A program made the position numbers and the translations under genes. The notes below the pieces were generated by a model. The model saw only the letters and a program-made list of their open reading frames with translations, had not been told where the DNA came from and searched no databases. Positions 245 to 26,034 of a DNA stretch of 64,000 bases are shown piece by piece (the stretch's first letter is position 1; every line of letters begins with the position of its first letter). This stretch comes from Antedon mediterranea (lineage: Eukaryota; Animalia; Echinodermata), in contig NC_092676.1 of NCBI RefSeq assembly GCF_964355755.1, forward strand, positions 1,369,788 to 1,433,787. Direction: 5' to 3'.

Positions 245-1501
245 TTACTGTGGTAGAATGAAAACTGGTTCCAAATAGTCATTCTCATCACTTGTTGATC
301 TTTGTTCGTCCATTTCACAGTAGAACTCGGAATCGTCATCAATTGTAGATCTTTGTTCGTCCATTTCACAGTAGATTAACTCGGAATCGTCATCAATTGT
401 AGATCTTGGTTCGTCCATTTCACAGTAGAACTCGGAATCGTCATCAATTGTAGATCTTGGTTCGTCCATTTCACAGTAGAACTCGGAATCGTCATCAATT
501 GTAGATATTGGTTCGTCCATTTCAAGTTCACCATTTTTATATCTTTGTTCATCCATTTCACAGTATAACTCAGAATCGTCATCAATTGTAGATATTGGTT
601 CGTCCATTTCAAGTTCACCATTTTTATATCTTTGTTCATCCATTTCACGTTCACCATTTTTATATCTTTGTTCATCCATTTCACAGTATAACTCAGAATC
701 GTCATCAATTGTAGATATTGGTTCGTCCATTTCAAGTTCACCATTTTTATATCTTTGTTCATCCATTTCACAGTATAACTCAGAATCGTCATCAATTGTA
801 GATATTGGTTCGTCCATTTCAAGTTCACCATTTTTATATCTTTGTTCATCCATTTCACAGTATAACTCAGAATCGTCATCAATTGTAGATATTGGTTCGT
901 CCATTTCAAGTTCACCATTTTTATATCTTTGTTCATCCATTTTACAGTATAACTCAGAATCGTCATCAATTGTAGATTCACAATAGAGGGCAGTTTCATC
1001 ATCGTTGGCACTTATTAGATTGTCCATGTTATAGATCTCAACATTTTCTTCAATTTTTTGTGGAATTGTTGCCTCCAAGTGTCCACTTGTTTTCATTGTT
1101 TCTCTGGTTTGTTGACGCACATCTTGGGAAGGTATGTTAAATTCACCTCTAGTTTGACGACATCTTATTCTGCAGATATAAAATTTCTGTTGAATGTTAG
1201 CCCACAATGGAAAAAAAATCATGATTCCAATTCCACCGATAATCATTAGTAATATAAAAATTATACAAAGTACATTTTGAAGGACTTCATTATACTGATA
1301 TTTGTACTTGTAGTCCTCTGTAGAAGAATCATTAATTGTGGTTGAGATTACAGTATACAATTCTGTTGAAACCTCAGTCAAATTCTCCGTAGTCCAAGTA
1401 CTGTTATTCCAAATACTGTTACTTATAGTACTGCTACTCAAAGTGCTGTTACTCTCCATATTATAAGTAATGTTGTTTTCAAAACTTAACTCTTGAGCCA
1501 T
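245..1501 (-). CDS. Single-pass membrane protein with S/T/N-rich ectodomain and a cytoplasmic tandem array of acidic tyrosine motifs (adaptor-like)
   Basis: 418-aa ORF; hydrophobic segment VLCIIFILLMIIGGIGIMIFFPLW; cytoplasmic repeats STIDDDSELYCEMDEQRYKNGELEMDEPI; no clear signal peptide inside the ORF. Confidence 0.75.
   Translation of the reverse strand: MAQELSFENNITYNMESNSTLSSSTISNSIWNNSTWTTENLTEVSTELYTVISTTINDSSTEDYKYKYQYNEVLQNVLCIIFILLMIIGGIGIMIFFPLWANIQQKFYICRIRCRQTRGEFNIPSQDVRQQTRETMKTSGHLEATIPQKIEENVEIYNMDNLISANDDETALYCESTIDDDSELYCKMDEQRYKNGELEMDEPISTIDDDSELYCEMDEQRYKNGELEMDEPISTIDDDSELYCEMDEQRYKNGELEMDEPISTIDDDSELYCEMDEQRYKNGEREMDEQRYKNGELEMDEPISTIDDDSELYCEMDEQRYKNGELEMDEPISTIDDDSEFYCEMDEPRSTIDDDSEFYCEMDEPRSTIDDDSELIYCEMDEQRSTIDDDSEFYCEMDEQRSTSDENDYLEPVFILPQ
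290..980 (-). repeat. Coding tandem repeat with 87-bp (29-aa) units and shorter ~51-bp derivative units
   Basis: Repeated gaatcgtcatcaattgtagat...ccatttcacagta units visible directly; reading frame preserved throughout. Confidence 0.9.
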
Positions 1502-2403
1502 ATGTAAAAAAAATTGCCATCAAAATGAAGTTTATAAGTATGGAGTATTATGTAACTGTGTAAATCTTTACCAACATGAGGTATGGTGAAATTACTTGCT
1601 ATTTACATAAGTTATGTTTCAATTGTCGTCATAACAATACTTTTGCATCATGAGAATGAAACGGCCCAATAGAAGAGTTGTTTGATGTACCTTAGATCTA
1701 TTTTACGATGTAAACATACAAACGCTGTAGGAAAACTGAAAGTGTACATAAATTAAAAATAAAGTTACTTTCCACAGGAATTGATAGAAGAAGATAATGA
1801 TAGGGCAATAAACGAACAAGACCTAGTGAATAATAAGTAGCTGTAGTGTGCATTTATAGTTCTACAGTAACTACCATAGAAAACTTATACTTTTAATATA
1901 CTTACGGTATATAAAATTGTTGGTGGGTTGCGCGGTAATTTAGCTTTTGAATGTAAGCTATTGGTAATAGCGATCTTCGTGAATGTCGTTAATGTCGCCA
2001 CATTAATAATAATTTTTTTTCGTTTAATATAAACATATTTCTATATTGTAAAGTTATTTGTAATAATTATTTAATATACTAGAAATTAGAGTGGAGGGGC
2101 ACACCATTCCCAGTGATAGTGGTATTGTACTGCTCTTGCCTCTCCTCAGCTCTCCACCTCTTTTGTTTTGCATCATGTTTGTTTTTCCCATCTATTTTTG
2201 TTCATATAAAGTAAAACTGTTGCATGAATGCTTAGCTAATGAATATTCATGATATCAATACATTTTATTAATTCCTTTTATTCTTTAACATCTTGCGATA
2301 ATACTTTAGTGTTCAGAATAGTATACAATACAATGAACTATTGAATATGATATTGAATACTGAATAAGTGTACAGAAACAAACATGTTCCTCATTCACTA
2401 ATT

Positions 2404-2994: not shown

Positions 2995-5241
2995 TTAACC
3001 CAATGGTACCATATGAGCAATTTCATCATTATTGTCATCTCTGGCCTTATGACCAACATTGTCATTAATAATGTCATTGCAGTTGACATCTTCATCACCA
3101 TCATCATTGCAATCATCATTGTTGTCATCATTGTCATCATTATTGTCAATATTGTCATTGATATATGTTTCATTAGTATCAGGACCATCATCAGTAATAT
3201 CATCATTGCTGTCATCATCCTTATCATCATAAATGTTATCATTGGTGTTTTCATCATCACTGTTTTTGTCATTTTGGTTTTCATGATCATCACAACTTTT
3301 GTTTTCATTGTCATCATGGCCGTTGTAGTTGTTATCAGCATTTTCATTGTTATCTGCATTTTCATTGTTATCAGCATTTCCATCTTTTCTATTATCGATA
3401 CTACAATCTATGACGTTGTCATCTTTATTGGCATCTGTGTCATTTCTATCATTAACTTCATCTTTCATGTTGCCATCAGTGTCATCATCATTGTTATCAA
3501 TGTTGCTTCCATCTTTATCATTTTGGTCATCATTATTTCCATCAATGTCATTTTTTTCATTAATGCTATCATTAATATTTTCAATATCAGCATTATCACC
3601 ATCATTGTTATCAACAATAATTATATCTTTATCATTTTCTTCTTTGTTATCTATTTCATTGGTAACATTTTCATCATTTTGATCCTTGTCATTGTTATCA
3701 ACATTAATTATATCTTTATCATTTCCTTCTTTGTTATCAATTTCATTGTTAACATTTTCATCATTTCGATCCTTGTCATTGTTATCAATATTAATAATAT
3801 CTTTATCATTTCCTTCTTTTTTATCAATTTCATTGTTGTTGCTTTCATCATTTCCATCCTTGTCATTGTTATCAACATTAATATCTTTATCATTTCCTTC
3901 TTTGGTATCAATTTCATTGTTAATGCTTTCATCATTTCCATCCTTGTCATTGCTATCAACATTAATATTTTTATCAATTTCATTGTTAACTCTTTCGTCA
4001 TTTCTATCCTTTTCGTTGTTATCATTGACTTCACTGTTGTTAACATAATCATAATAATCATCAATACAAGCATAGTCATTATCAAAATCATCTTCAACCA
4101 GATGTGAAATACTGCAGTTGTTGGTTTTTGGAGGTTCAAAGAGTTGCCTCTCGTTCAATATGCATATTCCTCCCGTGACCTTTACATTGTCTTTATTGTT
4201 AACAACTTTGCTGTTTTTAACATGACCTTCACCATCACGCAAATAGCCATAATCATCGATGCATGCATAATCATTATCAAAATCATCCTCAACAAGACCT
4301 AAACCTTCATTCCTTGGTTTTAATTTATCCGCACTCTCATAAATTGTATTTTCTTGCTCTATGTAATCATCGGAGAGTCTATCGTAATCTGATTCACATA
4401 TTGGTTTTAGATTAGCATCTTCTCCAGAATTAAGACTAACAGATGAGTACAAACTGGACCTGTCTAACGATGTAATCTTTCTGAACTCATCTGTTGTGAT
4501 ATCATCATATATTTCATTTTCCTGGTTCACATATTCATTTGTGTCATTAATATCTTCATATATGTTACAAGTTTCAAGTATTTCTGAATTTGTCATGCTT
4601 TCATTTGGTGGTGTGGAAATCGTTATTGAACAAGATTCCAGTTTTTGTTCTTTGGGATCTTGGTAAGGATGATTGTCATCCGCAGATTCTTCTAGTAAAA
4701 GCAAATCAGTTGATGCCGCTTTTTTATTGCCATCTTTTTTCAAATCCTTTCTAACCTTTTTTCTATATTTTGCGCAGAGAATAATAAGTACAAGAAGTAT
4801 AAACACAGCTATCAAAGATGGAATAATGATAAGTAAATCATTTGTTTCCAATGGTGATTCATTTTCACTTTCATCTGTAGAAGTTGTTGTCAGTGTTGTA
4901 ATTTGATTTTTCTCTCTATTTATCGTCACATTCGGTGTTGAATTTGTTGTTTCTTCAGATGTAGATAAAACTGTAGCTGTCGTTTGTTCTGCTGATTCCA
5001 TTGTAGTTGAATATGTCACATTTTTATCAGAAGTAGATAAAACCGTTGCTGTGGTTTGTTCTGTCGATTCTATTGTAGTTGAATATGTCACATTTTTATC
5101 AGTAGTCATATATTCAGTAGTATAATATGTAGTAGTTGCGTCGGTATTCATTGTTTCAGTTGAATAGCAACTAGCAAACAATGCATAACATATCACCCAA
5201 TGAATCCATAAAGAAAGCATTATTATTGGAGAAAATAACAT
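2995..5241 (-). CDS. Type-I membrane protein: signal peptide, mucin-like stalk, TM, tyrosine-rich then N/D-rich cytoplasmic tail
   Basis: 748-aa ORF; hydrophobic N-terminus; T-rich stalk; TM LLIIIPSLIAVFILLVLIILCA followed by KYRKK; motifs IYEDI, EYVN, IYDDI, SLYSSV, IYESAD, DYACI x2. Confidence 0.85.
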   Translation of the reverse strand: MLFSPIIMLSLWIHWVICYALFASCYSTETMNTDATTTYYTTEYMTTDKNVTYSTTIESTEQTTATVLSTSDKNVTYSTTMESAEQTTATVLSTSEETTNSTPNVTINREKNQITTLTTTSTDESENESPLETNDLLIIIPSLIAVFILLVLIILCAKYRKKVRKDLKKDGNKKAASTDLLLLEESADDNHPYQDPKEQKLESCSITISTPPNESMTNSEILETCNIYEDINDTNEYVNQENEIYDDITTDEFRKITSLDRSSLYSSVSLNSGEDANLKPICESDYDRLSDDYIEQENTIYESADKLKPRNEGLGLVEDDFDNDYACIDDYGYLRDGEGHVKNSKVVNNKDNVKVTGGICILNERQLFEPPKTNNCSISHLVEDDFDNDYACIDDYYDYVNNSEVNDNNEKDRNDERVNNEIDKNINVDSNDKDGNDESINNEIDTKEGNDKDINVDNNDKDGNDESNNNEIDKKEGNDKDIINIDNNDKDRNDENVNNEIDNKEGNDKDIINVDNNDKDQNDENVTNEIDNKEENDKDIIIVDNNDGDNADIENINDSINEKNDIDGNNDDQNDKDGSNIDNNDDDTDGNMKDEVNDRNDTDANKDDNVIDCSIDNRKDGNADNNENADNNENADNNYNGHDDNENKSCDDHENQNDKNSDDENTNDNIYDDKDDDSNDDITDDGPDTNETYINDNIDNNDDNDDNNDDCNDDGDEDVNCNDIINDNVGHKARDDNNDEIAHMVPLG

Positions 5242-5999
5242 TTCGTCTTCTAAATATTACATACAGTATATCATATATTTTTTGTATTAAAATAACTAGC
5301 GTATTCTTGCCACTGAAGAATTTTCCAGAAAGAAGATGAAGATATAAGTTGATTTCACCCGGTTATCAAAATCTAATACAGTAATTTTGGTTCCCGCTAA
5401 GAAATCAGTTCGAAGGTTATATACCACCAGTAATGTTGGTATTCTATTCTAATCCACAGCTCTCACATACACATTTGTGCAATTTAAGATTTCCAACAAA
5501 CAGAGCTTTACTTACATATTCTTCTGTACATTTGTAATATAGAGATAAACATGAATGTACTAGTGTTTACTGTTTTATGTTGTTCCTGTTTAGAAATACA
5601 ATTCAAACATTGTGTAAAGGGAAGCAATCAAACATATTCCAAGAACGTCTAGATTGCTTTCATGTATGCCTTAATTTACCACAAGTAGGTACATGTCCAA
5701 AAATAGTTTAGTTCCTGTTATTAGATCAGCTTAACTGCTATGACTTGCTATATAAATACCTGTTGGTGTTTTATATTCTCAAATAATATACACTTTTTTA
5801 TTCTAGGAATTGTTTTCCATTGTAATAAAGATGAGGGTCCACAAATAACATATTGTCAAAAATCTGCTATTATGAAAATAACAAGAATTGAATTCAATTC
5901 AGCTGTTGTTGTTGCTATTGTCACTATTTATATTATATAGTAGATTCCAACTTTTTCATGAACTCCCAGGTTGTTGCATTCAATGTACTTAACACAGAG

Positions 6000-6272: not shown

Positions 6273-7688
6273 TCTGTCTGCTGCTACTGTGAAATATTCA
6301 TTGTACACAGGTTGTCTTATCTTGGTTAAATCAATCAACCTCAGTGAAAAGCACCTTTTAATGTTTTAATTCTCCAGAGATAGATACAGAAACATAATGT
6401 CTAAACTACTACAGTAACTGTGAAACAATAAACATACAGTCACTATAGTCCACATAAGTACCTATTAAGTTATATTAAACCTCTAGAGGTACAGAAACGA
6501 AAACACAGAATTACTTCCTTGATGTAAAAGTTCAAGAGAGTCATTGTTTATAAAGAGGACATGTCAAGTATTGAACTTTTGCAACAGTGGTATCATTAAT
6601 ATGTTGTTTATTTTATGAAGCCAAGGAGAAACATGTCTGCCATCTTTGGAAGTAGAAGGGTAATTCCCAAGAAAAATATTTTTGATTTGGGGTATTTTTA
6701 CAATTATATTTGAAGTTTGATGAATGTTTAAAATGTGTATCAATAAAATGTTGTTTATTTTTGTAAGCCTAGAGGAAACATATCTACCATTTTTTTTAAA
6801 GTAGACAGAGAATTCCCAAGAAAAATATTTTTAATTTGTTTGTTATTTTTACAATTATATTTGAAGTTTATTGAATGTTTATCAGACATGCATATATAAT
6901 ACAATAAGATACTAATAAAAAAAATGTTTATTAATAAAATTATTAAAAATTTTCATAATACAAACAAATAATTACTATACCCATTTTGGTATTTATGTTT
7001 ATTAATATAGAGTAGAGTTCCTCCTTTATAACAACCTTATTCAACCCTATATTTTTTTCATAATGTGTAAGAAACAGGAAATCCAATAATTGTGTGGTTA
7101 CATGCATACAAAGTATGCAAATTACCAATTTGTTTTCATCTTCCCCTCTTCCCCACAAAAAAATGTTTTTAAAAATTCCAATAAAGTGTTTTTTTTAAAT
7201 TGATCTTCCATTTAACAGTTCAACGGTTGGAATGCAATAAGTTGAATTTATTCAATAAACTAAAAATAAACTATGACAGTAGTCCCAGATTCATGCATGC
7301 ATTCAATGCAAACAGAGAATTTACCACAAAACAACATGTGACGAAATAAAGTATAGTTCCTGTTAAAAAAGTATATAATCATTAATAAACACTAACATAT
7401 TTCACAATCATGCAATAGTACATCCTATTGCACGTTGTGTGACCAACAATGGTCCAATTAAATGACAGGAATTTTCGTGTGTTGTAATAATAATTATGTA
7501 TACTTTTATGATGATTTAGTGTTTTAGTAAAACATATTTAATAGTTTTTTTCCCTTTGAATAGTGGTTTTGAAATCCATTAGTACTTTTTTTAAGGTTCA
7601 GTATTATACATTATATATTATTTTTAATGAAATTAAATTTATATTACTATTATTACATTGTGGTGTTATCTTCAATTTTCTTAACAAT

Positions 7689-8873
7689 TTAATCTGTCAC
7701 TTGCAAATATCCATCCTCATCCAGTTCAAATTCATCATATGCCTGGTTGGACATTCCATAGAGGGTGTTGTTGTGTTCTGTCTGTTGACGCACAGTGCTC
7801 TCCTCCTGGTTTATATTTTGTGTGCTTTGAGACTGCATTTGTTCGGAAGTTGTAAGTGGAGATCTCCTCCTTATACATCTGTACAACTCAATAAGAAATA
7901 AAATAAGAAAAGCAGAAAAAATACATGCAATTGCTACGATGAAGTGTTCTTCTCTTATCCAGTATATGTTTGAATCGGATTCGATATCATATTCAACTGT
8001 GGATCTGGCTTCTTTGGTAGTAATTGATGTGTCTGAAATCACTGTGCTTGGTGTATCAGTTGTTGTTGTGCTACCTTGGGAGGATGTATCTGGAGTTGTA
8101 ATTGGTGTGCTTGGAAACATTGTAGTTGGTGGTGTATTCCTAATAGAAGATATTTCAGTGGCACCAGTTGTTGTTGCTTCTGGTGATGTTGTAGAAGGCA
8201 TCTCAATTATAGAACATGATTTTGATATGCTTATCATTCCAGATAGACTAACATCACATGTAAGACCATAAGGCGCAATATCAGCTGGATTGTATGTGTA
8301 ATATAATGTACATACATTAGATTTTAAGCAGTTTGTTGTGGTTAGAGTGTTTCCGTTACTTCTCAACATCAATGTTTCGATATCGTCTGGAGGCATGTTG
8401 TATGAACATGATGCAATAGAACTAGTATCATTAATGTGTAAACTTGTGCATTTAGGTAATGACTGATAAATGTTCAAAGTAACTGTATTTATTATGCTAT
8501 TAATACTAAAAAATATTAACCTGCATTCATATGTTGAATTAAGATGCTTCCAGATATTAATATCATCAGGAATCTTGACCAAAAGACTATAGTCTGCACC
8601 TTCACCAGGGATTGAGTAATAACTTGACTGTAAACCAAGTCGACTTTCATCTATCATCTTTTCAGTACTGATGTAATCACTATGGACAACCCACCTTACA
8701 ACAGTTCCATCATTCATATGATTATGAGTACAGGGAAGAGATACATTCTGTCCAGGTGTGACCGTAATGACTTCTCCAAATACAAACAAAGAATGTTTAT
8801 CCACCAAGAGAATACTCCACAACAAAAAGATATATCTGCCCATTTCCAAACTGCTCAATGAAAATGTAAACAT
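7689..8873 (-). CDS. Ig-family receptor, short-tail class A (signal peptide, V-like Ig, Cys-rich second domain, S/T stalk, TM, tail ending LDEDGYLQV)
   Basis: 394-aa uninterrupted ORF; TPGQNVSLPC...VRW...YSL...TYEC Ig pattern; TM FIVAIACIFSAFLILFLI; paralogous to neighbouring ORFs. Confidence 0.9.
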   Translation of the reverse strand: MFTFSLSSLEMGRYIFLLWSILLVDKHSLFVFGEVITVTPGQNVSLPCTHNHMNDGTVVRWVVHSDYISTEKMIDESRLGLQSSYYSIPGEGADYSLLVKIPDDINIWKHLNSTYECRLIFFSINSIINTVTLNIYQSLPKCTSLHINDTSSIASCSYNMPPDDIETLMLRSNGNTLTTTNCLKSNVCTLYYTYNPADIAPYGLTCDVSLSGMISISKSCSIIEMPSTTSPEATTTGATEISSIRNTPPTTMFPSTPITTPDTSSQGSTTTTDTPSTVISDTSITTKEARSTVEYDIESDSNIYWIREEHFIVAIACIFSAFLILFLIELYRCIRRRSPLTTSEQMQSQSTQNINQEESTVRQQTEHNNTLYGMSNQAYDEFELDEDGYLQVTD

Positions 8874-9379: not shown

Positions 9380-10270
9380 TTATCTTCCATTACATTGCAA
9401 AACATTCACTTCCAAATATCCATCCTCATCCAGTTTAAATTCATTTCCATCATCCTGTGTAGATGTCATGTTGGACATTCCATAGAGGTCATTGTTGTCT
9501 TCTGTTTGTTGGTGCACAATGCTCACTTGGTTTGTATTTTGTATGCTTTGAGAGTTTCTTTGTTCAGAAGTTGTAAATGGATGTCTCCTCCTTGTACATC
9601 TGTACAACTCAATAAGAAACAAAATAAGAAATGCAGAAGAAATACATGCAATTGCTGTGATGAAGTGTTGTTCTCTTCTTATCCAATATTTGTTTGAATC
9701 GGACTCAAGATCATTCTCTACTGTGGATCTGGCTTCATTGGTTGTAATAGGTGTTTTAGGAAACTCTGTGCTTGGTGTAATACCTTTAACATCAGTTGCT
9801 GTTGTTGTGATAGAATGTACTCCAGATGTGCTGCCTTGGAAATGTGTTGTAATTTGTGCAGACAATGTACTTTCTTGTGCAATTTGCAAAGTAACTGTAC
9901 TTAATACACTGTAACCACCACTCATAGATGTTAACCTGCATTCATATGTTACATTAATATATTTCCAAATATTAATATCATTAGGAATTATGATAAAAAG
10001 ACTATAGTCTGCACCTTCACCAGGGATTACGTAATATTCAGTAAGTAAGTAAAGTACATTTTCATGTAGTTCTTTTTCAGTACTGATATAATCATTATAG
10101 GCAAACCATCTAACATTTCCATCATTCATGTTTCCATTATTACAAGGAAGAGATATATTCTGTCCAGGTGTGCCTGTAATAGTTATCGTTTCTCCAAATA
10201 CAAACAAAGAATGTTTATCCCTCAAGCACACCAATAGAATACTCCACAACAAGATGGTATATCTGGCCAT
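9380..10270 (-). CDS. Ig-family receptor, class A, lacking the second (Cys-rich) domain; tail ends LDEDGYLEV
   Basis: ORF track starts at TTG 10276; first ATG is 10270 (MARYTILLWSILLV); V-like Ig joins the stalk directly. Confidence 0.88.
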   Translation of the reverse strand: MARYTILLWSILLVCLRDKHSLFVFGETITITGTPGQNISLPCNNGNMNDGNVRWFAYNDYISTEKELHENVLYLLTEYYVIPGEGADYSLFIIIPNDINIWKYINVTYECRLTSMSGGYSVLSTVTLQIAQESTLSAQITTHFQGSTSGVHSITTTATDVKGITPSTEFPKTPITTNEARSTVENDLESDSNKYWIRREQHFITAIACISSAFLILFLIELYRCTRRRHPFTTSEQRNSQSIQNTNQVSIVHQQTEDNNDLYGMSNMTSTQDDGNEFKLDEDGYLEVNVLQCNGR

Positions 10271-10723: not shown

Positions 10724-11457
10724 TAGATGACAAATTTCGTTTTTGTAAAAGCACAAGTTAACGGAGTACTTACTCGAACGTTTCAATCTCTATCAGAGAT
10801 CCTTCTCAACTGACTGCGGAGTGTTAATGCAGCTTGGTCATTCTTGACGTCATCTGTTGATGACGTCGTACGCCTCCGGTTGTAGGTTGGAGGTTGTGCG
10901 GGGCTCGGCCAGGTGATGTGTCTATCAAATCATTGTACAAATGCGAGAGTTCGTGGGCTCCAGTGTCCCGGTTCATGGTCTTCTCCTTATTTCTCCTTAT
11001 ATGTAATGATTCTCTAATCTGTTTGTCTTTGCGTTTAGGCTCTTTGGTTAAGATGGTAGCCTCCCAGTTTGGTACATGATTGTGTTTTATGACATGTTCT
11101 GTGATGGCAGATTTGTGTATGATCGAAGATGTGGATGTTCTGGAGGCCCTAGTCATTACTCCCCCCGTGTTTGTTGTAACATCTTTTTTGTGATCATTAA
11201 TTCGTGTTTGTAATGCCCTCCCTGTTTCCCCAATGTAAACTTGTGGACAGTAACCTCCAACCTACAACCGGAGGCGTACAACGTCATCAACAGATAACGT
11301 CAAGAATGACCAAGCTGCATTAACACTCCGCAGTCAGTTGAGAAGGATCTCTGATAGAGATCGAAACGTTCGAGTAAGTACTCCGTTAACTTGTGCTTTT
11401 ACAAAAACGAAATTTGTCATCTATACAAAATCGAAGCTAAATAAAATTCTTTCAAGA
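10724..11457 (-). mobile_element. 5'-truncated Penelope-like retroelement with inverted pLTR
   Basis: GIY-YIG remnant CPQVYIGETGRALQTRINDH...SAITEHVIKHNH...RESLHI...MNRDTG (10824-11249); ~170-bp inverted repeat (10724-10893 vs 11253-11424); 12-bp TSD ttcaattatgga (10712-10723, 11458-11469); empty site seen in the paralogue at ~17664. Confidence 0.92.
11338..11371 (+). ncRNA. Candidate atypical minimal hammerhead ribozyme in the Penelope pLTR
   Basis: TTGAGAA-G-[GATCTCT gat AGAGATC]-GAAACGTTC (U3/A8 variant core, 7-bp stem II); inverted copy at ~10777-10810; stem I is not convincing. Confidence 0.45.
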
Positions 11458-11462
11458 TTCAA

Positions 11463-14400
11463 TTATGGAATTGGCAAAACAGTAACTTCCAAATATCCAT
11501 CCTTATCCAGTTTAAATTCATTTCCATCATCCTGTGTAGATGTCATGTTGGACATTCCATAGAGGTCATTGTTGTCTTCTGTTTGTTGGTGCACAATGCT
11601 CACTTGGTTTGTATTTTGTATGCTTTGAGAGTTTCTTTGTTCAGAAGTTGTAAATGGATGTCTCATCCTTGTACATCTGTACAACTCAATAAGAAATAAA
11701 ATAAGAACAGCAGAAGAAATACATGCAATTGCTATGATGAAGTGTTCTCTTCTTATCCAATATTTGCTTGAATCAGATTCAAGATCATTTTCTATTGTTC
11801 TAGCTTTGTTGGTTGTAATAGGTGTGTTTGAAAACACTGTGCTTGGTGTTACAGGAGATGAGTTTAAATTTTCTGCTGTTGTGATTGAATGTGCTCCAGA
11901 TGTTCTTTCTTGGAAATATGTTTTTGTAATTGGTGAGCTTGGAGACATTGTTCTTCCTTGGAAAGACTGGTCCATTTCTGTTCCTTCTGGTGATGTTGTA
12001 AAAGGCATCTCATTTGTATAAAATGATTTTGATGTGCTTATTGTTCCAGATAGACTAACAACACATATGAGACCATTTTGCGCAAAGTCAGCTGGGTTGT
12101 ATGTGTAATATAATGTACATACATCAGATGATAAGCAGTCTATTGTGGTTAGATTCATTCCATTGCTTATCCTCATCAATGATTCAATATCTGAAGGAAT
12201 GTTGTATGAACATGATGCGATAGAACTAATATCATTAATGTGTAAACTTGTGCATTTAGGTAATGACTGATAAATGTGCAAAGTAACTGTACTTAATACA
12301 CTGTAACCACTCATTGATTGTAACCTGCATTCATATTCATATTAAGATATTTCCAGATATTAATATCATCAGGAATCTTGATAAAAAGACTATAGTCTGC
12401 ACCTTCACCAGGGATTGCATAATATCTTGCCAATAAGCCAACTGTGCTTTCATTTATTATCCTTCCAGTACTGATGTAAACTGAATGGCTAAACCACCTT
12501 ACAACGTTTCCATCATTCATGTTATTTAGACTAGGCTATGAATGAGGTAGGTGCCACCCGGAGAGGTAGAAATTCTCATATAACTTTTCTAGACCAGTTT
12601 TTTCTGGGGAATCCAAATATATTGGGTAAACGGGCTGTAACCTGAGAACTTTCGCGTGAGGGCGCTTTTTTCAAAATGGCTGCCAGTTACAGTAGACTAT
12701 GATATCTTGGCAACCACTGGTCATAGAGAGTTGATTTTGGTGTCAAATTGTTTGGAATGTACATGTTCCTATTTGATGTAATAGAAAATTTTGTCAGAAA
12801 ATGGCCGGAAATACCTCTATTGACCTTTGACCCAATATCTAACAGATATCATATCTCCGTAACTACTGGACACAGAAAGTTGTAATTGGTGTCAAACTCT
12901 CCAGAATATAGATGTTTATATTCAAACTAATAGAACATTATCTGTAAAAATGACCGGAAATAACGTTACTGACCTTTGACCCAAAATGCAAGACATTTCT
13001 CCTATCTGATCACGCTAATCCTGTCAATTAATTCATTTTGTGCCAATTGGAGGTTGACATTCTCATATTATTTTCTTGACCAGTTTTTCATGTGCAATCC
13101 GAGTAATATGAGATAAATAAGCCATAACAAGGCCAAGAATTTAATTCTTTTACTACATACATGCTTCCCTTTAGTGTTTCAGTCTGTATGTCGTGTATTA
13201 ATCTTCAAGATCGCTCACATCACTGCAATCTGAAAAGTCTTCATATTCATTATGTGTAAACAGTTCCTGGACATCAGTGGGCATCACTGTCTCAATCCAT
13301 TTAGGCTCCATTTGTTCGTTCCATCCATTGTGTGTACTGTTGTTGACAAAATAATTGACGTCTGCTGATTGCCATTCTTTAGTAATGAAGTTTGCTCTAA
13401 GTATATGAAACTCAAGGGTCTGCTGACATAGTGGCAGTAATGATATATCTGTAATCTTGTTGTGTCTGGAAAACTTTCTGTTGAAGATATCATATCTTGC
13501 TTGATTTACACTTTTCCCCTTCACTCCATACAATGGTGAAACATACTCTTCAAGTTCCTCATACAACTCTTTTGATGGAACATCTGACACTCCAAGGTTG
13601 CAGAATGTGTCTGCGCTTTTGTTAAATCAATGTCACTCAATTTCAGTACATTTCGGTATTTCCCAGTGTTTGTATCAATAATTACCCTCTGCCCATCATC
13701 TATGAAATGAGATAGTGAAATGACTGGAATGTCAAAGTCTCCAGAATGGGAACGAATTATTGCTACGCCTTGATTGTTATTTGTTAAAGCATGCTTTGCA
13801 TGCAGGATGACTTTCATGTCGGCTTCTTCTTGGCTACTATTAAGCTCTGGAACCAATACAACATCTCAGTTAGTAACGTAGATGCATTCTTTGTACGATG
13901 AAAAGTAGATAACATCACTCCTCATATCTGTTAGAATGCTTTCTTTCTTTGACACTAGTACACAGCGAATAAGCTCAATCAATCTGGTCTTGTTTTTGCC
14001 GTTGGCAAGGAAATTGTTAAAATCACGGGGCAACTTTGATATTTTTGAGCTTACAATTACTTTTGGTGCAATACCGCGTCTGTTTCTCGCAGTGCTCGAC
14101 CAGGATCCATAACATCATCTCACTTTATTTTCAAATAGTGGGAAGAAACTCGAAATCAAGGAAAATGGGAAAGTAAGAGTAATATAAGCTAATCGGGATG
14201 TTTTAGGAAAGCTTCTTGCCACCTCAACAAAGCATGGTAGAATAATTGACTTTAAGAAAGCCTTTGAGTATCCACTTACCCCTGTCCCGCTAAGCCTTGC
14301 TAATACAGATGGGACAAGACGAACAACTCAGAAAAGTGTCCTAATGGAAATTCTCATCGAAATTTCAACAGATGTTATAGATCCTGGTCGGGCACTGCCA

Positions 14401-16390
14401 GCAAAGGCTACTGTCATTGCCTATGTTGTTGACTTGATGGCATTAATCAGAACATTTACATCTTACCCTGATGCGTACGAGGATCTTGTAGCAAAGGTTT
14501 TCAACAGCATCCCTAAAGGATACAAGCGAGTTGATATTGTTACCGATGCATACCTGCCAAAAAGCATTAAGTCTGTTGAGAGAAACATACGCGGTATTGC
14601 ACCAAAAGTAATTGTAAGCTCAACAATATCAAAGTTGGCCCGTGATTTCAACAATTTCCTTGCCAACGGCGAGAACAAGACCAGATTGATTGAGCTTATT
14701 CGCTGTGTACTAGTGTCAAAGAAAGAAAGCATTCTAACAGATATGAGGAGTGATGTTATCTACTTTTCATCGTACAAAGAATACATCTACGTTACTAACT
14801 GAGATGTTGTATTGGTTCCGGAGCTTAATAGTAGCCGGAAGAAGAAGCCTACACGAAAGTCATCCTGCATGCAAAGCATGCTTTAACAAATAACAATCAA
14901 GGCGTAGCAATAATTCGTTCCCATTCTGGAGACATTGATATTCCAGTCATTGCACTATCTCATTTCATAGATGATGGGCAGAGGGTAATTATTGATACAA
15001 ACACTGGGAAATACCGAAAGGTACTGAAATTGAGTGGCATTGATTTAACAAAAGCGCAGAAATCATCCCTTATTGGATTCCATGCTTTCACAGGTAACGA
15101 TTATAACTCCGCTTTCTTTCGGAAAGGAAAACGTACCTGCTGGAAGCTTCTGGAATCAAAAGCAAAATTTGTTGACACATTCTGCAACCTTGGAGTGTCA
15201 GATCAAAAGAGTTGTATGAGGAATTTTAAGAGTATGTTTCACTATTGTATGGAGTGAAGGGGAAAAGTGTAAATCAAGCAAGATATGATATCTTCAACAG
15301 AAAGTTTTCCAGACACAACAAGATTACAGATATATAATTACTGCCACTATGTCAGCAGACCCTTGAGTTTCATATACTTAGAGCACACTTCATTACTAAA
15401 GAATGGCAATCAGCAGATGTCAATGATTTTGTCAACAACAGTACACACAATGGATGGAACGAACAAATGGAGCCTAAATGGATTGAGACAGTGATTCTCA
15501 CTGATGTCCAGGAACTGTTTACACATAATGAATATGAAGACTTTTCAGATTGCAGTGATGTGAGCGATCTTGAAGATTAATACACGACATACAGTCTGAA
15601 ACACTAAAGGGAAGCATGTACAGTATATAGTAAAAGAATTAAATTATTGGCCTTGTTATGGCTTATTTATCTCATATATTCGGATTGCACATGAAAAACT
15701 GGTCCAGAAAATAATATGAGAATGTCAACCTCCAATTGGCACAAAATGAATTAATTGACAAAATTAACGTGATCAGATGGGAGAAATTTCTTGCATTTTG
15801 GGTCAAAGGTCAGTAACGTTATTTCCGGTCATTTTTACAGATAATGTTCTATTAGTCTGAATATAAACATCTATATTCTGGAGAGTTTGACACCAATTAC
15901 AACTTTCTGTGTCGAGTAGTTACGGAGATATGATATCTGTTAGATATTGGGTCAAAGGTCAATAGAGGTATTTCCGGCCATTTTCTGACAAAATGTTCTA
16001 TTACATCAAATAGGAACATGTACATTCCGAATAATTTGACACCAAAATCACCTCTCTATGACCAGTGGTTGCCAAGATATCATAGTCTATTGTAACTGGC
16101 AGCCATTTTGAAAAAAGCGCCCTCACGCGAAAGTTCTCAGGTTACAGCTCGTTTACCCAATATATTTGGATTCCCCAGAAAAAACTGGTCTAGAAAAGTC
16201 ATATGAGAATTTCTACCTCTCCGGGTGGCACCTACCTCATTCATAGCCTAGTCTAATTATTACAAGGAAAAGATACATTCTGTCCAGGTGTGGCTGTAAT
16301 ACTCATCGTTTCTCCAAATACAAATAACGATTGTTTATCCATATAGCACACCAATAGAATAATCCGCAACAAGATGGTATATCTGGCCAT
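11463..16390 (-). pseudogene. Class A Ig-family receptor disrupted by a 3.7-kb transposon and a 1-nt frameshift
   Basis: ATG at 16390 (MARYTILLRIILLVCYMDKQSLFVFGETMSITATPGQNVSFPC); sequence resumes after the insertion as NMNDGNVVRWFSHS; -1 frameshift near 12335-12340 relative to paralogues; 3' part is ORF 11463-12314. Confidence 0.9.
12527..16255. mobile_element. Foldback derivative of an Academ-like (XPG/PIN-domain) DNA transposon
   Basis: Termini TAGACTAGGCTATG...CATAGCCTAGTCTA; 3-bp TSD ATT; ~1.56-kb inverted arms (12527-14088 vs ~14580-16255); decayed coding motifs VVDLMALI, DIVTDAY, EEADMKVILHA, SGDxDI, FHAFTGND..SAF.RKGK. Confidence 0.85.
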
Positions 16391-16620
16391 TTCTAAAGTT
16401 TAACTGCTAAACTTAATGTCAACATGAATGACTGTTCTTTCTTACTATGATATTCCTGCTTGGAATCAGATTTTATAATAAAAGTAATGCCTTATTGATC
16501 CCAATGTATAAATATTGTGTACCTGTCCCCTTAACTCGTCCATGCACATCATAACCCCAGTCTGAATAAACAATTACCTGGTTATTTCCTACAACTTAAT
16601 ACAATGTATAATAAAGAGTA

Positions 16621-17668: not shown

Positions 17669-18820
17669 TTATGGAATTGGCAAAACAGTAACTTCCAAAT
17701 ATCCATCCTTATCCAGTTTAAATTCATTTCCATCATCCTGTGTAGATGTCATGTTGGACATTCCATAGAGGTCATTGTTGTCTTCTGTTTGTTGGTGCAC
17801 AATGCTCACTTGGTTTGTATTTTGTATGCTTTGAGAGTTTCTTTGTTCAGAAGTTGTAAATGGATGTCTCATCCTTGTACATCTGTACAACTCAATAAGA
17901 AATAAAATAAGAAAAGCAGAAGAAATACATGCAATTGCTATGATGAAGTGTTGTTCTCTTTTTATCCAATATTTATTTGGATCCGAGTCAAGATCATTCT
18001 CCACTGTGGATCTGGCTTCATTGGTTGTAATCGATGTGCTTGGTTTAATACCTGTAGTAGCAGTTCCTTGAAAATATGCATCTGGGGTTGTAATTGGTGG
18101 AGACACTGTACTTCCTTGGAAAGAATGGTCCATTTCTGTTCCTTCTGGTGATGTTGGAATCTCATTTATAGAACATGATTCTGATACGCTTATCATTCCA
18201 GATTCACTAACATTACAAGTAAGTCCATGTGGAACAACATCTGTTGGGTTGTATGTGTAATATAATGTACATACATTAGATGATAAGCAGTTTATTGTTG
18301 TTAGAGTCCTTCCATTGCTTCTCCATATCAATGATTCCATATCTGAAGGGTTGTTGTAGGAACATGATGCAACAGAAGTGGTATCATTAATTTGTAAACT
18401 TGTACATTTAGGTAATGACTGATAAATGTGCAAAGTAAATGTACTTAATACACTGTAGTAACCACCACTCATTGATGTTAACCTGCATTCATATGTTACA
18501 TTAAGATATTTCCAGATATTAATATCATCAGGAATCATGATAAAAAGACTATAGTCTGCACCTTCACCAGGGATTGCAAAATGAGTTGCATGTAAGCCAA
18601 GTGTGCTTTCATTTATCATCTTTTCAGTACTGATGTAAGCACTCTGAACAAACCACCTTACAACAATTCCATCATTCATGTGATCATAATTACAAGGAAG
18701 AGATACATTCTGTCCAGGTGTGCCTGTAATAGTTATCGTTTCTCCAAATACAAATAATGAGTGTTTATCCCATAAGCACACCAATAGAATACTCCACAAC
18801 AAGATTGTATATCTGGCCAT
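17669..18820 (-). CDS. Ig-family receptor, class A, two extracellular domains; tail ends LDKDGYLEVTVLPIP
   Basis: Uninterrupted ORF; ATG at 18820 (track uses upstream TTG); same architecture as 7689-8873. Confidence 0.9.
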   Translation of the reverse strand: MARYTILLWSILLVCLWDKHSLFVFGETITITGTPGQNVSLPCNYDHMNDGIVVRWFVQSAYISTEKMINESTLGLHATHFAIPGEGADYSLFIMIPDDINIWKYLNVTYECRLTSMSGGYYSVLSTFTLHIYQSLPKCTSLQINDTTSVASCSYNNPSDMESLIWRSNGRTLTTINCLSSNVCTLYYTYNPTDVVPHGLTCNVSESGMISVSESCSINEIPTSPEGTEMDHSFQGSTVSPPITTPDAYFQGTATTGIKPSTSITTNEARSTVENDLDSDPNKYWIKREQHFIIAIACISSAFLILFLIELYRCTRMRHPFTTSEQRNSQSIQNTNQVSIVHQQTEDNNDLYGMSNMTSTQDDGNEFKLDKDGYLEVTVLPIP

Positions 18821-19114: not shown

Positions 19115-20449
19115 TTATATTGAATCATCAAGTGATTGATAGGCCTCATTTTCATGGTATACAATGCCATCATTTGTTCCATCTTCATTGCTATTCTCTG
19201 ATGCATCCACCTTCAATGCACTTTGTTCAAGAACTTGTTCTCCTGTTTTATCTGCTCTATTTGTACAATCTCCATCAACAATAACATTCTTAATTTCCTT
19301 CTTTTGCTCATCAGCTGATTCATAAATCTGATTTTCCTCCATGACACTCTCCTTACTATTTTCCAGCATCTCCTGATTTTCTCCTTTTGTTGTTGGATTT
19401 ACTTTCAAGTCAACCTCAACATATTCATGATCATCTGGTGGTGCTGATTTAAATGAAAGGTTTTGTTTATATTCAGAGCGTCTTCTTACATAATAAATGA
19501 TGAAAATAATCAGAAGTAGAATGATGACAAAAGCTACTGACATGATGGCTATTAGATATATTGGGACACTGTCATTAGGTTCTTCTGGTTTATTTACAGT
19601 TAACATTTGTTTGTTTCTTGTTGTACTATCATTAGATTCTGTGGAAGTGGTTGTGATAGTACTTTCTAATGTTGAGAAGTATTTTGTCAAAGTTGTTTTT
19701 TCAATAAAAGGTTCAACAGATGCGCTTCCTTCAAAAGGCGAGTCTGTGTCTGTTCCTTCTGTTGATCCAGGGATCTCATTTATAGAACATGATTTTGTTG
19801 TGCTTATCGTTCCAGATTCACTAACATTACAAGTGAGACCATGTGGTACAATGTCAGCTGGGTTGTATGTGTAATTTAATGTACATACATTAGATGATGA
19901 ACAACTTTCTGTGGTTAGAGTGTTTCCATTGCTTCTCCATATCAATGATTCCATATCTGAAGTGTTGTTGTAGGAACAGGATGCGATAGAACTAGAATCA
20001 TTAATTTGTAAACTTGTGCATTTAGGTAATGACTTATAAATATGTAAAGTAACTGTATTTAATTTGCTATAACTACCTGTAATAAATGTAAATCCGCATT
20101 CATATGTTACATTAAGATATTTCCAGATATTAATATCATCAGGAATCGTGATAAAAAGACTATAGTCTGCACCTTCACCAGAGATTGCATAATAACTTGT
20201 CAGAAAGCCAAGCACAGTACTATCTAGTATTCTGTCACTACTGATGTAATCACCATGGGCATGCCACCTAACACTTCCATCCATCAGTTGATCATTAGTA
20301 GTACAAGGAAGAGATACATTCTGTCCAGGTGTGGCTGTAATAACTTCTCCAAATAAAAATAATGATTGTTTATCCATCAAGCACATTAATAGAATAATCC
20401 GCAACAAGATGGTATATCTGGCCATTTCCAACTTCTTTAATTTCGTCAT
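19115..20449 (-). CDS. Ig-family receptor, long-tail class B, C-terminally truncated (terminal ITIM-like motif lost)
   Basis: 444-aa ORF; TM IYLIAIMSVAFVIILLLIIFIIYYV; tail HEYVEV, IYESAD, AYQSL; 1-nt deletion gives an early stop, and remnant codons KKGTKIPAYVYYE continue to ~19045. Confidence 0.85.
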   Translation of the reverse strand: MTKLKKLEMARYTILLRIILLMCLMDKQSLFLFGEVITATPGQNVSLPCTTNDQLMDGSVRWHAHGDYISSDRILDSTVLGFLTSYYAISGEGADYSLFITIPDDINIWKYLNVTYECGFTFITGSYSKLNTVTLHIYKSLPKCTSLQINDSSSIASCSYNNTSDMESLIWRSNGNTLTTESCSSSNVCTLNYTYNPADIVPHGLTCNVSESGTISTTKSCSINEIPGSTEGTDTDSPFEGSASVEPFIEKTTLTKYFSTLESTITTTSTESNDSTTRNKQMLTVNKPEEPNDSVPIYLIAIMSVAFVIILLLIIFIIYYVRRRSEYKQNLSFKSAPPDDHEYVEVDLKVNPTTKGENQEMLENSKESVMEENQIYESADEQKKEIKNVIVDGDCTNRADKTGEQVLEQSALKVDASENSNEDGTNDGIVYHENEAYQSLDDSI

Positions 20450-21477: not shown

Positions 21478-22821
21478 CTATTCAAGTTCTAACACTTCAT
21501 AGTGAACATAAGCTGGAATTTTAGTTCCTTTTTTGTCCGATTCCTTCTGATCTAATTTAGCATTATTTATATTGATGTCATCAAGTGATTCATAGGCTTC
21601 TTTTTCATGGTATACAATGCCATCATTTGTTCCATCTTCATTGCTATTCTCTAATGCACTCTTCTTGAATGCCTCACTTTGTTCAAGAACTTGTTCTCCA
21701 GTTTTGTATATTCTCTTTGTATACTCTCCATCAACAATAACATTCTTAATTTCCTTTTTTTGCTTCTTTGCAACATTACCATCATCATTAATCTGTTTCC
21801 CATTCATGTCAGCTGATTCATAAATCCAGTTTTCCTCCATGACACTCTCTTTACTATTTTCCAGTATCTCTTGATTTTCACCGTTCTTTTGCTTATTTGC
21901 AACATTTTGTTTCCCATTCATGTCAGCTGATTGATAAATCTGATTTTCCTCCATGACACTCTCCTTACTATTTTCCAGCATCTCCTGATTTTCTCCTTTT
22001 GTTGTTGGATTTACTTTCAAGTCAACCTCAACATATTCATGATCATCTGGAGTTGCTGATTTGAATGATGGGTTTTGTTTATATTCAGAGCGTCTTCTTA
22101 CATAATAAATGATGAAAATAATCAGAAATAGAATTACGACACAAGATACTGACATAATGACTATTAGATGTATTGACTGATTAGAATTGGTTGGGTTGCT
22201 TACAGTTGAATGTATTTGTTTGTTTCTGTCCCTTGGTTCTGTGGTGCCTGTGCTTTTGGTACTTTCTAATGTTGTTTTTGTTGTATTTTTGTCTCTGTGT
22301 TCTGCAGTTTTTGTTTTAAATGAGACTGAGCCTGTTGTTTTTTCAATAAAAGATACACTAGTTGTGCTTCCTTGGGATGACAGGTCTGTCTCTGTTTCTG
22401 TGGATGTTGTAGAAGGCATATTATTTGTAGGTAATGACAGATAAATCTTCAAAATAAATTTGTTTAGTATATCATAATTGCCACTCCATGTTAACCTGCA
22501 TTCGTATGTTTCATTAAAATGTTTCCAGACATTAATATCATCTGGAATCTTGATTAAAAGACTATAATTATGACCAGTACCAGGGATTGCAAAATAACTT
22601 GTCTGTAACCCAAGTGTAGTATTAATAACTGTTCTTCCAGTAGTGATGTAAGCTTGACGGGTAAACCACCTAACAATTCCAACATTCACACAAGTAAGCA
22701 ATACATTCTGTCCAGGTGTGGCTGTAATAAAAGTCTCTGTTTCTCCAAATACAAATAAAGAATGTTTATGCCATAAATATACCAAGAGAATCATAAACCA
22801 CAACAAGATATGTTTGCCCAT
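21478..22821 (-). CDS. Ig-family receptor, class B, lacking the second domain; tail ends VHYEVL
   Basis: 447-aa ORF; signal peptide, V-like Ig, stalk, TM; duplicated ENQE..ESVMEEN.IY.SAD block. Confidence 0.9.
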   Translation of the reverse strand: MGKHILLWFMILLVYLWHKHSLFVFGETETFITATPGQNVLLTCVNVGIVRWFTRQAYITTGRTVINTTLGLQTSYFAIPGTGHNYSLLIKIPDDINVWKHFNETYECRLTWSGNYDILNKFILKIYLSLPTNNMPSTTSTETETDLSSQGSTTSVSFIEKTTGSVSFKTKTAEHRDKNTTKTTLESTKSTGTTEPRDRNKQIHSTVSNPTNSNQSIHLIVIMSVSCVVILFLIIFIIYYVRRRSEYKQNPSFKSATPDDHEYVEVDLKVNPTTKGENQEMLENSKESVMEENQIYQSADMNGKQNVANKQKNGENQEILENSKESVMEENWIYESADMNGKQINDDGNVAKKQKKEIKNVIVDGEYTKRIYKTGEQVLEQSEAFKKSALENSNEDGTNDGIVYHEKEAYESLDDININNAKLDQKESDKKGTKIPAYVHYEVLELE

Positions 22822-23394: not shown

Positions 23395-23635
23395 GGGTCA
23401 CCTTTGATCCTGAAGAGCTATAATAGATTCAAAATAGGCATGATTTTGACAATATTGTGTAACTTTTTCAACTAAAACGCGCACAATTTTGTAATTCGTA
23501 TGGCGTGATTTAAAGTAGAAATAGTTTTTAAAAATTTCAAATTACTAGGAAAAGCTGGAAAGTTATAATTCAAGAGAAAAAAACCTGTTTTTCATACACC
23601 GTACGCATAAAAAGTTTGCACGCGTGGGAATTTTC
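23395..23635 (-). mobile_element. Fragment related to the Helentron-like element at 47226-48830 (duplicated at ~30840-31093)
   Basis: Reverse complement aligns by eye with ~47686-47910 (aaaattcccacgcgtgc...ttccagc.tttt.ctagtaattt). Confidence 0.6.
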
Positions 23636-23990
23636 CTAATATCCATCCTCATCCAGTTTAAATTCATTGCTATCATCGTGTGTAGATGTCATGTTGGACA
23701 TTCCATAGCGGTCAGTGTTTGTTGACGCACAGTGTTCATGTTGTGTAGATTCTGTTTACATCAAGGGCTTTTTCATACATTATAAATGATGAAAATAACC
23801 AGAAATAGAATTATGACAGATGAAAAGATACCAAGACAATAGCTATTAGATATATTACAATACATACTGTTTATTGACTGGTTAGAGTTAGTTTTTTTGC
23901 ATTTTCAGTTGTAATTTATTTTTTGCTGCCTTTTGTTCTATCATCGTATTCTGTTGGAGTGGTCATGTACTTTGTAATGTTGATATTAAT
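23636..23990 (-). pseudogene. Ig-less receptor remnant: class B-like stalk/TM fused to a class A tail (YGMSNMTSTHDDSNEFKLDEDGY)
   Basis: Nucleotide similarity to class A tails (atatccatcctcatccagtttaaattca) and class B TM (aaatgatgaaaataa.cagaaatagaat); stops and indels. Confidence 0.75.
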
Positions 23991-24576: not shown

Positions 24577-26034
24577 CTATTCACGTTCTAACACTTCATA
24601 GTGATAATAAGTTGGATTTTTAGTTCCTTTTTTGTCTGATTCCTTCAGATCTAACTTATCATTATTTACATTGATGTCTTCAAGAGATTCATAGGCTTCA
24701 TTTTCATGGTACACAATGCCATCATTTGTTCCACCTTCATTTCTGTTCTCTGATGCACTCTTCTTCAATGCCTCACTTTGTTCAAGAACTTGTTCTCCTG
24801 TTTTATCTGCTCTATTTGTATAATCTCCATCAACAATAACATTCTTAATTTCCTTCTTTTGCTCAGTAATCTGTTTCCCATTTATGTCAGCTGATTCATA
24901 AATCCAGTTTTCCTCCATGACACTCTCCACATTATTTTTCATCATCTCCTGATTTTCTCCTTTTGTTGTTGGATTTACTTTCAAGTCAACTTCAACATAT
25001 TCATGATCATCTGGTGGTGCTGATTTGAATGATGGGTTTTGTTTATTTTGAGACTGAGAGTGTCTTCGTACATAATAAATGATGAAAATAATCAGAAGTA
25101 GAATGATGACAAAAGCTACTGCTGACATGATGGCTATTAGATATATTGGGACACTGTCATTAGGTTCTTCTGGTTTATGTACAGTTAACATTTGTTTGTT
25201 TCTTGTTGTACTATCATTAGATTCTGTGGAAGTGGTTGTGATAGTACTTTCTAATGTTGAGAAGTATTTTGTCAAAGTTGTTTTTTCAATAAAAGGTTCA
25301 ACAGATGCGCTTCCTTCAAAAGGCGAGTCTGTGTCTGTTCCTTCTGTTGATCCAGGGATCTCATTTATAGAACATGATTTTGTTGTGCTTATCGTTCCAG
25401 ATTCACTAACATTACAAGTGAGACCATGTGGTACAATGTCAGCTGGGTTGTATGTGTAATTTAATGTACATACATTAGATGATGAACAACTTTCTGTGGT
25501 TAGAGTCCTTCCATTGCTTCTCCATATCAATGATTCCATATCTGAAGTGTTGTTGTAGGAACAGGATGCGATAGAACTAGTATCATTAATTTGTAAACTT
25601 GTGCATTTAGGTAATGACTTATAAATATGTAAAGTAACTGTATTTAATTTGCTATAACTACCTGTAATAGATGTTAATCCGCATTCATATGTTTCATTAA
25701 AATATTTCCAGATATTAATATCATCAGGAATCGTGATAAAAAGACTATAGTCTGCACCTTCACCAGGGATTGCATAATAACTTGTCTGGAAACCAAGCAT
25801 AGTACTATCTAGTATTCTTTCACTACTGATGTAATCACCATGGGCATGCCACCTAACACTTCCATCCATCAGTTGATCATTAGTAGTACAAGGAAGAGAT
25901 ACATTCTGTCCAGGTGTGGCTGTAATAACTTCTCCAAATAAAAATAATGATTGTTTATCCATCAAGCACACCAATAGAATAATCCGCAACAAGATGGTAT
26001 ATCTTGCCATTTCCAACTTCTTTAATGTCGACAT
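24577..26034 (-). CDS. Ig-family receptor, class B, two extracellular domains; tail ends TYYHYEVL
   Basis: 485-aa ORF; near-duplicate of 19115-20449 with an intact C-terminus. Confidence 0.9.
   Translation of the reverse strand: MSTLKKLEMARYTILLRIILLVCLMDKQSLFLFGEVITATPGQNVSLPCTTNDQLMDGSVRWHAHGDYISSERILDSTMLGFQTSYYAIPGEGADYSLFITIPDDINIWKYFNETYECGLTSITGSYSKLNTVTLHIYKSLPKCTSLQINDTSSIASCSYNNTSDMESLIWRSNGRTLTTESCSSSNVCTLNYTYNPADIVPHGLTCNVSESGTISTTKSCSINEIPGSTEGTDTDSPFEGSASVEPFIEKTTLTKYFSTLESTITTTSTESNDSTTRNKQMLTVHKPEEPNDSVPIYLIAIMSAVAFVIILLLIIFIIYYVRRHSQSQNKQNPSFKSAPPDDHEYVEVDLKVNPTTKGENQEMMKNNVESVMEENWIYESADINGKQITEQKKEIKNVIVDGDYTNRADKTGEQVLEQSEALKKSASENRNEGGTNDGIVYHENEAYESLEDINVNNDKLDLKESDKKGTKNPTYYHYEVLERE

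Follow-up and report, generated by a model that had tools for sequence, protein, structure and literature searches.

The window, by which is meant the whole 64,000-nucleotide stretch of Antedon mediterranea DNA that was analysed, contains between 7.7 and 33.8 kb a cluster of nine related genes, four assigned to class A (A1–A4) and five to class B (B1–B5), together with two remnants, R1 and R2 (Table 1). Both classes deploy a single ectodomain type but two distinct combinations of transmembrane (TM) segment and tail: class A proteins have a TM segment containing Cys and Glu, followed by a tail bearing GYLxV, whereas in class B a plain hydrophobic TM segment precedes a long multi-tyrosine tail. 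A crude scan of the window open reading frames (ORFs) for splice signals revealed no consistent site. Papers are cited by PMC accession.

Table 1. Positions within the window of the clustered genes, their sites and neighbouring features.
Feature	Positions	Strand	Description
Adaptor-like ORF	245-1519	-	single-pass
Second adaptor-like ORF	2995-5256	-	single-pass
A1, class A	7689-8843	-	one ORF encoding a leader, a V-like and a second Ig-like domain, a Ser/Thr stalk, TM and a tail of 61 residues
A1 motif DEDGYLQV	7698-7721	-	FEL before; stop at 7689-7691
A1 second tyrosine site [DH]NxxLY	7758-7775	-	also in A2–A4 and P0004 (5/5)
A1 TM segment	7875-7946	-	conserved Cys and Ser; Glu near cytoplasmic end (E[LF]Y)
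A2, class A	9380-10270	-	without domain 2
A2 motif DEDGYLEV	9407-9430	-
Retroelement-like fragment	10824-11261	-	between A2 and A3
A3, class A, broken	11463-16399	-	5' part 16256-16399; insertion 12523-16259; frameshift near 12340
A3 motif DKDGYLEV	11484-11507	-	in broken gene
Foldback-type element	12523-16259		in A3
A4, class A	17669-18820	-
A4 motif DKDGYLEV	17690-17713	-
B1, class B	19115-20425	-	tail stops before terminal ITIM; ENEAYQSL 19130-19153
B2, class B	21478-22821	-	without domain 2; terminal ITIM VHYEVL 21490-21507
R1 remnant	23633-23983	-	class A distal tail on a decayed class B stalk/TM
R1 motif DEDGY + TAG	23639-23653	-
B3, class B	24577-26010	-	terminal YHYEVL, fails ITIM -2 position
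Class B E[NK]EAY[EQ]SL site (example)	24682-24705	-
B4, class B	28070-29413	-	terminal ITIM VHYEVL 28082-28099
R2 remnant	31091-31340	-	chimera as R1
R2 motif DEDGY + TAG	31097-31111	-
B5, class B	32120-33742	-	terminal ITIM VHYEVL 32132-32149
Multi-Ig receptor ORF	40977-42281	-	outside the cluster

Both remnants are dead chimeras, in which the TM segment is of class B type (82% to B2) but the fused distal tail belongs to class A (86% to A2). The foldback-type element that interrupts A3 is 3.7 kb long, with terminal inverted repeats of 1.09 kb (96%) and a second inverted pair of 484 bp, and its high depth in DNA runs suggests that it is present in many copies. The fragment between A2 and A3, which has the motif YIGETGR, is like that end of a Penelope-like retroelement which encodes the GIY-YIG-type endonuclease. 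The two single-pass ORFs that precede the cluster in Table 1 both resemble transmembrane adaptors: the first combines a short Ser/Thr-rich ectodomain with a repeat-expanded tail containing nine YxxM sites of the PI3K type, most of which read YCEM, and ending in ENDYLEPV, while the second contains many acidic tyrosine sites, a long Asp/Asn-rich repeat, two matches to the ITIM pattern (SLYSSV and SDYDRL), and IYESAD as in class B. The remaining ORF encodes a type I receptor of conventional form with several Ig domains (Pfam matches to Ig_3, E = 4e-17, and to V-set, E = 1e-13) and a short predicted tail devoid of tyrosine.

That the clustered genes encode type I Ig-like receptors, as originally predicted, was borne out by several lines of evidence, each weak and all in agreement. 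The proteins have an N-terminal V-like domain with invariant C38, W51 and Y105-E-C107, and one TM segment; the V-like domain matched antibody V-kappa chains (E = 7.6e-4), and Pfam V-set was recovered in two of the nine cluster proteins at E = 0.033, below the curated cut-off. The top Atlas cluster, which is unnamed and from echinoderms, has 93 members; those next in rank consist mostly of V-set Ig receptors. AlphaFold models were of low quality (pLDDT 41.6 and 49.7), and Foldseek deploying the latter low-confidence model returned 36 matches at E ≤ 0.001, those listed being Ig-domain proteins with TM-scores of 0.3–0.4.

The closest named relatives came from the crinoid Anneissia japonica. An initial protein search gave three matches among 2577 candidates, namely two window proteins and one A. 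japonica protein, and a subsequent profile search gave eight among 2195, six of which were Anneissia proteins annotated as uncharacterized; a TM-plus-tail profile run against longer proteins matched none of 7993 candidates at E ≤ 10, which is weak evidence. The relatives (LOC117112836, LOC117108349, LOC117099805, LOC117112842 and LOC117112777, all uncharacterized) exhibited V-domain identities of 40–58%, and belong to the same family as the window cluster, with both classes present. LOC117112836, a predicted gene model, yields both an isoform X2 (P0004) of class A, 41% identical, and an isoform X1 (P0005) in which the same ectodomain is followed by a class B TM segment and tail, a combination that may reflect either genuine alternative splicing or a model in which tandem copies were joined.

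Trees constructed with the ectodomains (excluding A3 and P0008, in which the V domain is incomplete, and for the two-domain tree also A2 and B2) separated the sequences by species with support of 100/100, and an AU test of the V domain conducted without P0005, the ectodomain of which is the same as that of P0004, rejected a single class A clade (p = 3.5e-53). By way of contrast, trees of the TM segment plus tail, from which P0002 was omitted as in all tail analyses, separated the sequences by class (100/99, with a long-branch warning). Since that class split extends across species, both classes predate the split from Anneissia, and the species-wise ectodomain trees therefore indicate that ectodomains have been homogenised or re-paired since that split. 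A layout with ectodomains sorted by species and TM segments and tails sorted by class is, on this phylogenetic evidence, the signature of paired receptors, and constitutes a stronger result than the tyrosine motif considered below. The dN/dS values calculated without A3 were 0.98 (95% 0.74–1.36) for the V domain, compared with 0.55 in domain 2 and 0.44 in the tails of class B; a value near 1 can be the result of relaxation instead of diversifying selection.

A six-frame scan of the window located the tyrosine motif six times, always on the minus strand: the four class A tails read D[EK]DGYL[EQ]V at their ends, and the two remnants read DEDGY-stop. All the copies originally claimed (FELDEDGYLQV, DEDGYLEV, DKDGYLEV twice, and LDEDGY plus a stop twice) were thus found as described, the interval first noted (7689-7740) corresponding to the last 17 codons of the single ORF of A1. 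The accompanying statement that class A tails end in the motif was correct for A1, which stops right after it, but not for A2–A4, which continue for 6–8 residues beyond the Val. Synonymous differences among the four class A copies number only 0–1 across the motif's 12 codons, and the tails of A3 and A4 are identical at 71 of 71 codons; the remnants have the same codons as class A up to the Tyr, followed by stop, Glu and Asn, the codon at +3 thereby specifying Asn and not Val. Because there is almost no synonymous change, the six copies are of one recent origin and are not independent, and because the other DKDG copy sits in the broken A3, the E-to-K replacement, which was suggested might tune activity, amounts to one event in one intact-looking gene (A4). 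When residues were shuffled within each tail, DEDGYxx[LVI] arose once in 200,000, and [DE]3xYxx[LVI] in 0.08–0.16% for the A1 and A2 tails, rates that exaggerate the surprise because the pattern was picked after being seen.

Cross-species evidence concerning the class A tail comes from the single orthologous tail of P0004; P0002 ends at the TM segment. The P0004 tail, which comprises 116 residues compared with 61–71 in the window and lacks DEDG, terminates in QDNGGYLEVTA, and scored z values of 4.5–7.2 against the window class A tails (0 of 500 shuffles in each case) as opposed to less than 1 against class B. Five positions, D(-4), G(-1), Y, L(+1) and V(+3), were conserved throughout A1–A4 and P0004, the latter also retaining E(+2), T(+4) and the C-terminal location, whereas position -3 reads E, E, K, K, N and position -2 reads D, D, D, D, G in the same order. 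The predicted conservation among orthologues consequently held for GYLxV and D(-4) in this one tail, but not for the triacidic patch. The acids in P0004 are shifted as opposed to absent, because a two-residue gap aligns its DQD with DED. The sequence GYLEVT is identical in A4 and P0004 (a common 6-mer arising in 3 of 5000 shuffles), while A2 and P0004 have five letters in common (82 of 5000 shuffles) and A1 has Q for E; this exact match with Anneissia supports constraint on the C-terminal tyrosine motif. Among the window copies, the dN/dS of 0.95 (interval 0.39–3.0) obtained for class A tails gave no measurable constraint and is uninformative. On comparative grounds, the exact DEDG would appear to be a lineage-specific acidic context and not the conserved core of the site.

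The class A TM segment is likewise recognisable in P0004, which keeps the Cys, the Ser and E[LF]YRC. Glu and Cys occur together in all six class A proteins and as a pair are absent from class B; the Glu, kept in both P0002 and P0004, is situated near the cytoplasmic edge of the segment, not in mid-helix, and the two residues may serve to bind a partner chain.

The original prediction had characterised the class A motif as nearly the hemITAM of Dectin-1 and CLEC-2. Since a hemITAM is defined by acids at -4, -3 and -2 before YxxL (PMC3576117, PMC12582321), and Dectin-1 carries DEDG (PMC11624271), the proposal could be compared position by position, and it failed with respect to both the triacid and the +3 Leu. 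The pattern [DE]3xYxxL was present in none of the 14 tails of both classes and both species; three acids at -4, -3 and -2 were confined to A1 and A2 (two of the five class A tails), P0004 having one, with G at -2 and N at -3. The substitution of V for L at +3 was, as predicted, confirmed, with V in all five class A tails and L in none. To judge from these residues, the class A site fails hemITAM membership on two defining features, although a single-tyrosine activation-like function is plausible. The full ITAM pattern Yxx[IL]x6-9Yxx[LI] was likewise found in none of the five class A tails, A1 having YxxF-x6-YxxV only.

We consider it rather unlikely that the class A motif serves as a relaxed hemITAM signalling through Syk, given the absence of Leu at +3, the restriction of the triacid to two tails with only one acid in the orthologue, and the nature of the further Tyr located 10 residues upstream in A1 (YDEF) and P0004, which might count in its favour but is followed by F or C at its +3 position and is lacking in A2–A4. 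Other observations nonetheless accord with such a role: A1 and A2 match DEDG exactly, and all five class A tails have Gly at -1, the residue that favours activation in Dectin-1 and CLEC-2, where a swap to Ile alters output (PMC12669754). Among hemITAM receptors such as NKp65 the spacing of the acids varies, and they serve phosphorylation as opposed to SH2 binding (PMC3576117); the C-terminal SH2 domain of Syk bound a pY-I-Q-V peptide (PMC3514216); and in oysters Syk associates with lectins that carry a hemITAM (review PMC13027682).

Assignment of opposing functions to the two classes is complicated by class B. All nine class B proteins, from both species, carry E[NK]EAY[EQ]SL, and ENxIY[EQ]SAD is also conserved in their tails, whereas the ITIM VHY[ED]VL is present in four of the nine, again in both species; one class B tail, that of P0006, matches the full ITAM pattern. 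The E[NK]EAY[EQ]SL site is as near the hemITAM consensus as the class A site and is better conserved, and is itself a hemITAM-like candidate. Activating versus inhibitory polarity, which we infer, is therefore not clean, because of the ITIM count, the acidic YxxL in every class B protein and the ITAM pattern of P0006.

These same class B features, acidic YxxL sites throughout and ITIMs in a minority, would suit an alternative in which the class A site recruits a phosphatase or adaptor of the SHP2 type, or in which the family functions in adhesion or development, so that the classes do not form an activating and inhibitory pair. Peptides of the type pY-hydrophobic-x-V bind the N-terminal SH2 domain of SHP2 (PMC3514216), the Atlas look-alikes include the adhesion molecules CD96, CRTAM and MCAM, and sites of this kind are common here, neighbouring ORFs having acid-Tyr tails (e.g. 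ENDYLEPV). With D or G at -2, however, the class A site is no ITIM. The cluster also exhibits a rapidly changing V domain, turnover of tandem copies, swapped tails and pseudogenes, features that are typical of immune receptor clusters and argue against a non-immune role, and we regard the alternative as improbable.

It is also quite unlikely that GYLxV operates unphosphorylated as a YxxPhi trafficking signal read by AP-2 or AP-3, with class A proteins acting as scavengers that take ligand into the cell by endocytosis or phagocytosis. The Gly before the Tyr, the acidic X, the bulky +3 residue and the C-terminal location all fit the lysosomal GYxxPhi type, but such signals lie 6–8 residues from the membrane (PMC4584282), compared with 55–59 here and 110 in Anneissia. 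Furthermore, up to eight residues follow the Val, and such a model has no need of the Leu that is conserved at +1. Two other candidates were rejected outright. An EF-hand fails through the lack of flanking helices and the K at loop position 1 in A2–A4; DxDGY[LI] belongs to the common turn-type words, and a PDB search with the tail gave two chance matches, one to the loop of an EF-hand (E = 0.28) and one to an allergen (E = 0.76). A PDZ ligand was discounted as the C-termini differ (VTD, NGR, PIP, VTA).

The reading that we tentatively prefer, and hold to be quite possible if somewhat short of probable, is that the class A motif provides one phosphotyrosine at which an SH2 domain with a preference for hydrophobic residues at +1 and +3 docks, with a likely activating effect. 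The steps envisaged, all of which we infer beyond the sequence comparison itself, would be that binding of ligand to the variable V domain clusters the receptors, and that a Src- or Syk-family kinase then phosphorylates the motif tyrosine, aided by whatever upstream acids exist. An SH2 domain reading the hydrophobic +1 and +3 residues would subsequently dock, PLC-gamma being the first guess and Syk the alternative, and class B receptors for similar ligands would provide a counterbalance through the terminal ITIM where present. Such switching-on would have no need of a hemITAM acid patch. On peptide arrays, the domains bound by the similar site pY-I-Q-V (FRS2 Y436) included SHP2-N, PLC-gamma-C, Syk-C and Itk (PMC3514216); because Syk-C, PLC-gamma-C and SHP2-N bound alike, the SH2 reader is not deducible from sequence, and Val at +3 would be compatible with Syk. 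Assignment to PLC-gamma by motif is in turn weak because the YLDL peptides of FGFR1 Y766 and FGFR3 Y760 gave no PLC-gamma SH2 binding in the same study (PMC3514216).

Comparison with known systems serves to place the family. Dectin-1 (CLEC7A) and CLEC-2 (CLEC1B) resemble class A in having a motif Tyr with Gly at -1, and in DEDG being identical in A1 and A2, although all five class A tails also carry the [DH]NxxLY tyrosine, and A1 and P0004 the Tyr at -10. They are C-type lectins of type II, with YxxL in an N-terminal tail, whereas class A proteins are type I and Ig-like with a C-terminal motif, and the triacid is not kept in A3, A4 or Anneissia. The vertebrate paired receptors, among them KIR, SIRP and Siglec, are similar in sharing an ectodomain type between opposite tails and in that ectodomains are homogenised within a species. 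The activating KIR, SIRP and Siglec members combine a basic TM residue with a separate adaptor, whereas in class A the TM residue is acidic and the tyrosines are its own, in which respect CD3-gamma and CD79a may be loosely alike. The PLC-gamma site of LAT has hydrophobic residues at +1 and +3. It further resembles the class A site in the Gly at -1 of the activating tyrosine (LAT Y132/Y136, the PLC-gamma site being Y136; PMC10063449), although LAT is an adaptor without an ectodomain. CEACAM1 and CEACAM3 form a mammalian Ig pair (PMC11646290) of this kind, with a shared ectodomain coupled to opposite tails, as the present cluster would have.

Among invertebrates, the FcoR genes of Botryllus constitute clusters of type I IgSF genes with ITIM, hemITAM and 'core' YxxI/L/V motifs (PMC12582321; review PMC12065747), two loci swapping ITIM and hemITAM by splicing, and under the FcoR scheme the class A site would be a core-1 or hemITAM-like motif (PMC12582321). 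FcoR4 has a canonical EDDVYAIL, and the idea of a hemITAM on an invertebrate type I Ig receptor is therefore not new (PMC12582321). The FcoR proteins differ as partners of the FF genes in allorecognition (PMC12582321), and the crinoid coding regions, unlike theirs, are single ORFs; the likeness drawn here is one of architecture. The Alr system of Hydractinia likewise consists of clustered V-set IgSF receptors with diverse tails containing ITAMs or ITIMs, but has full two-Tyr ITAMs and an Fn3-like spacer (PMC9546547), whereas class A is without a canonical ITAM. Paired-type IgSF clusters with tyrosine motifs have thus been described in cnidarians, tunicates and vertebrates (PMC9546547, PMC12582321, PMC11646290), and a search of the open-access literature found no description of a crinoid cluster of this type or of the present receptor family.

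What is conserved is not the resemblance to Dectin-1, and the headline claim of the original prediction shrinks accordingly; the cluster remains a concrete crinoid candidate in which two tail classes are older than the split from Anneissia. A more far-reaching proposal, which we put forward only as a long shot, is that it represents an old crinoid paired immune or allorecognition complex, in which recombination, together with alternative last exons, would switch one pool of ectodomains from activating to inhibitory tails and back, the exact DEDGY patch of Dectin-1 having evolved independently here to signal through Syk with Val at +3. The residues DEDG, DKDG and DNGG before YLxV also constitute a natural allelic series that bears on the need of a single-tyrosine activation motif for its acid patch.

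Other alleles or paralogues were encountered in sequencing runs with differing ends after the motif, which read as NVLP-stop in run X1 and LPIP-stop in organism B. Differing ends at 7691-7697 were apparent in runs X1, X6 and X8, and residues beyond +4 therefore vary. A contig of run X5, which is only guessed to be RNA, covers 7020-8055 and so carries no weight as to expression. In organism B the motif was covered by five of the seven pieces listed in X6 and six of the eight listed, out of nine, in X8, the short pieces over the motif having 1–3 mismatches in 32–45 bases.
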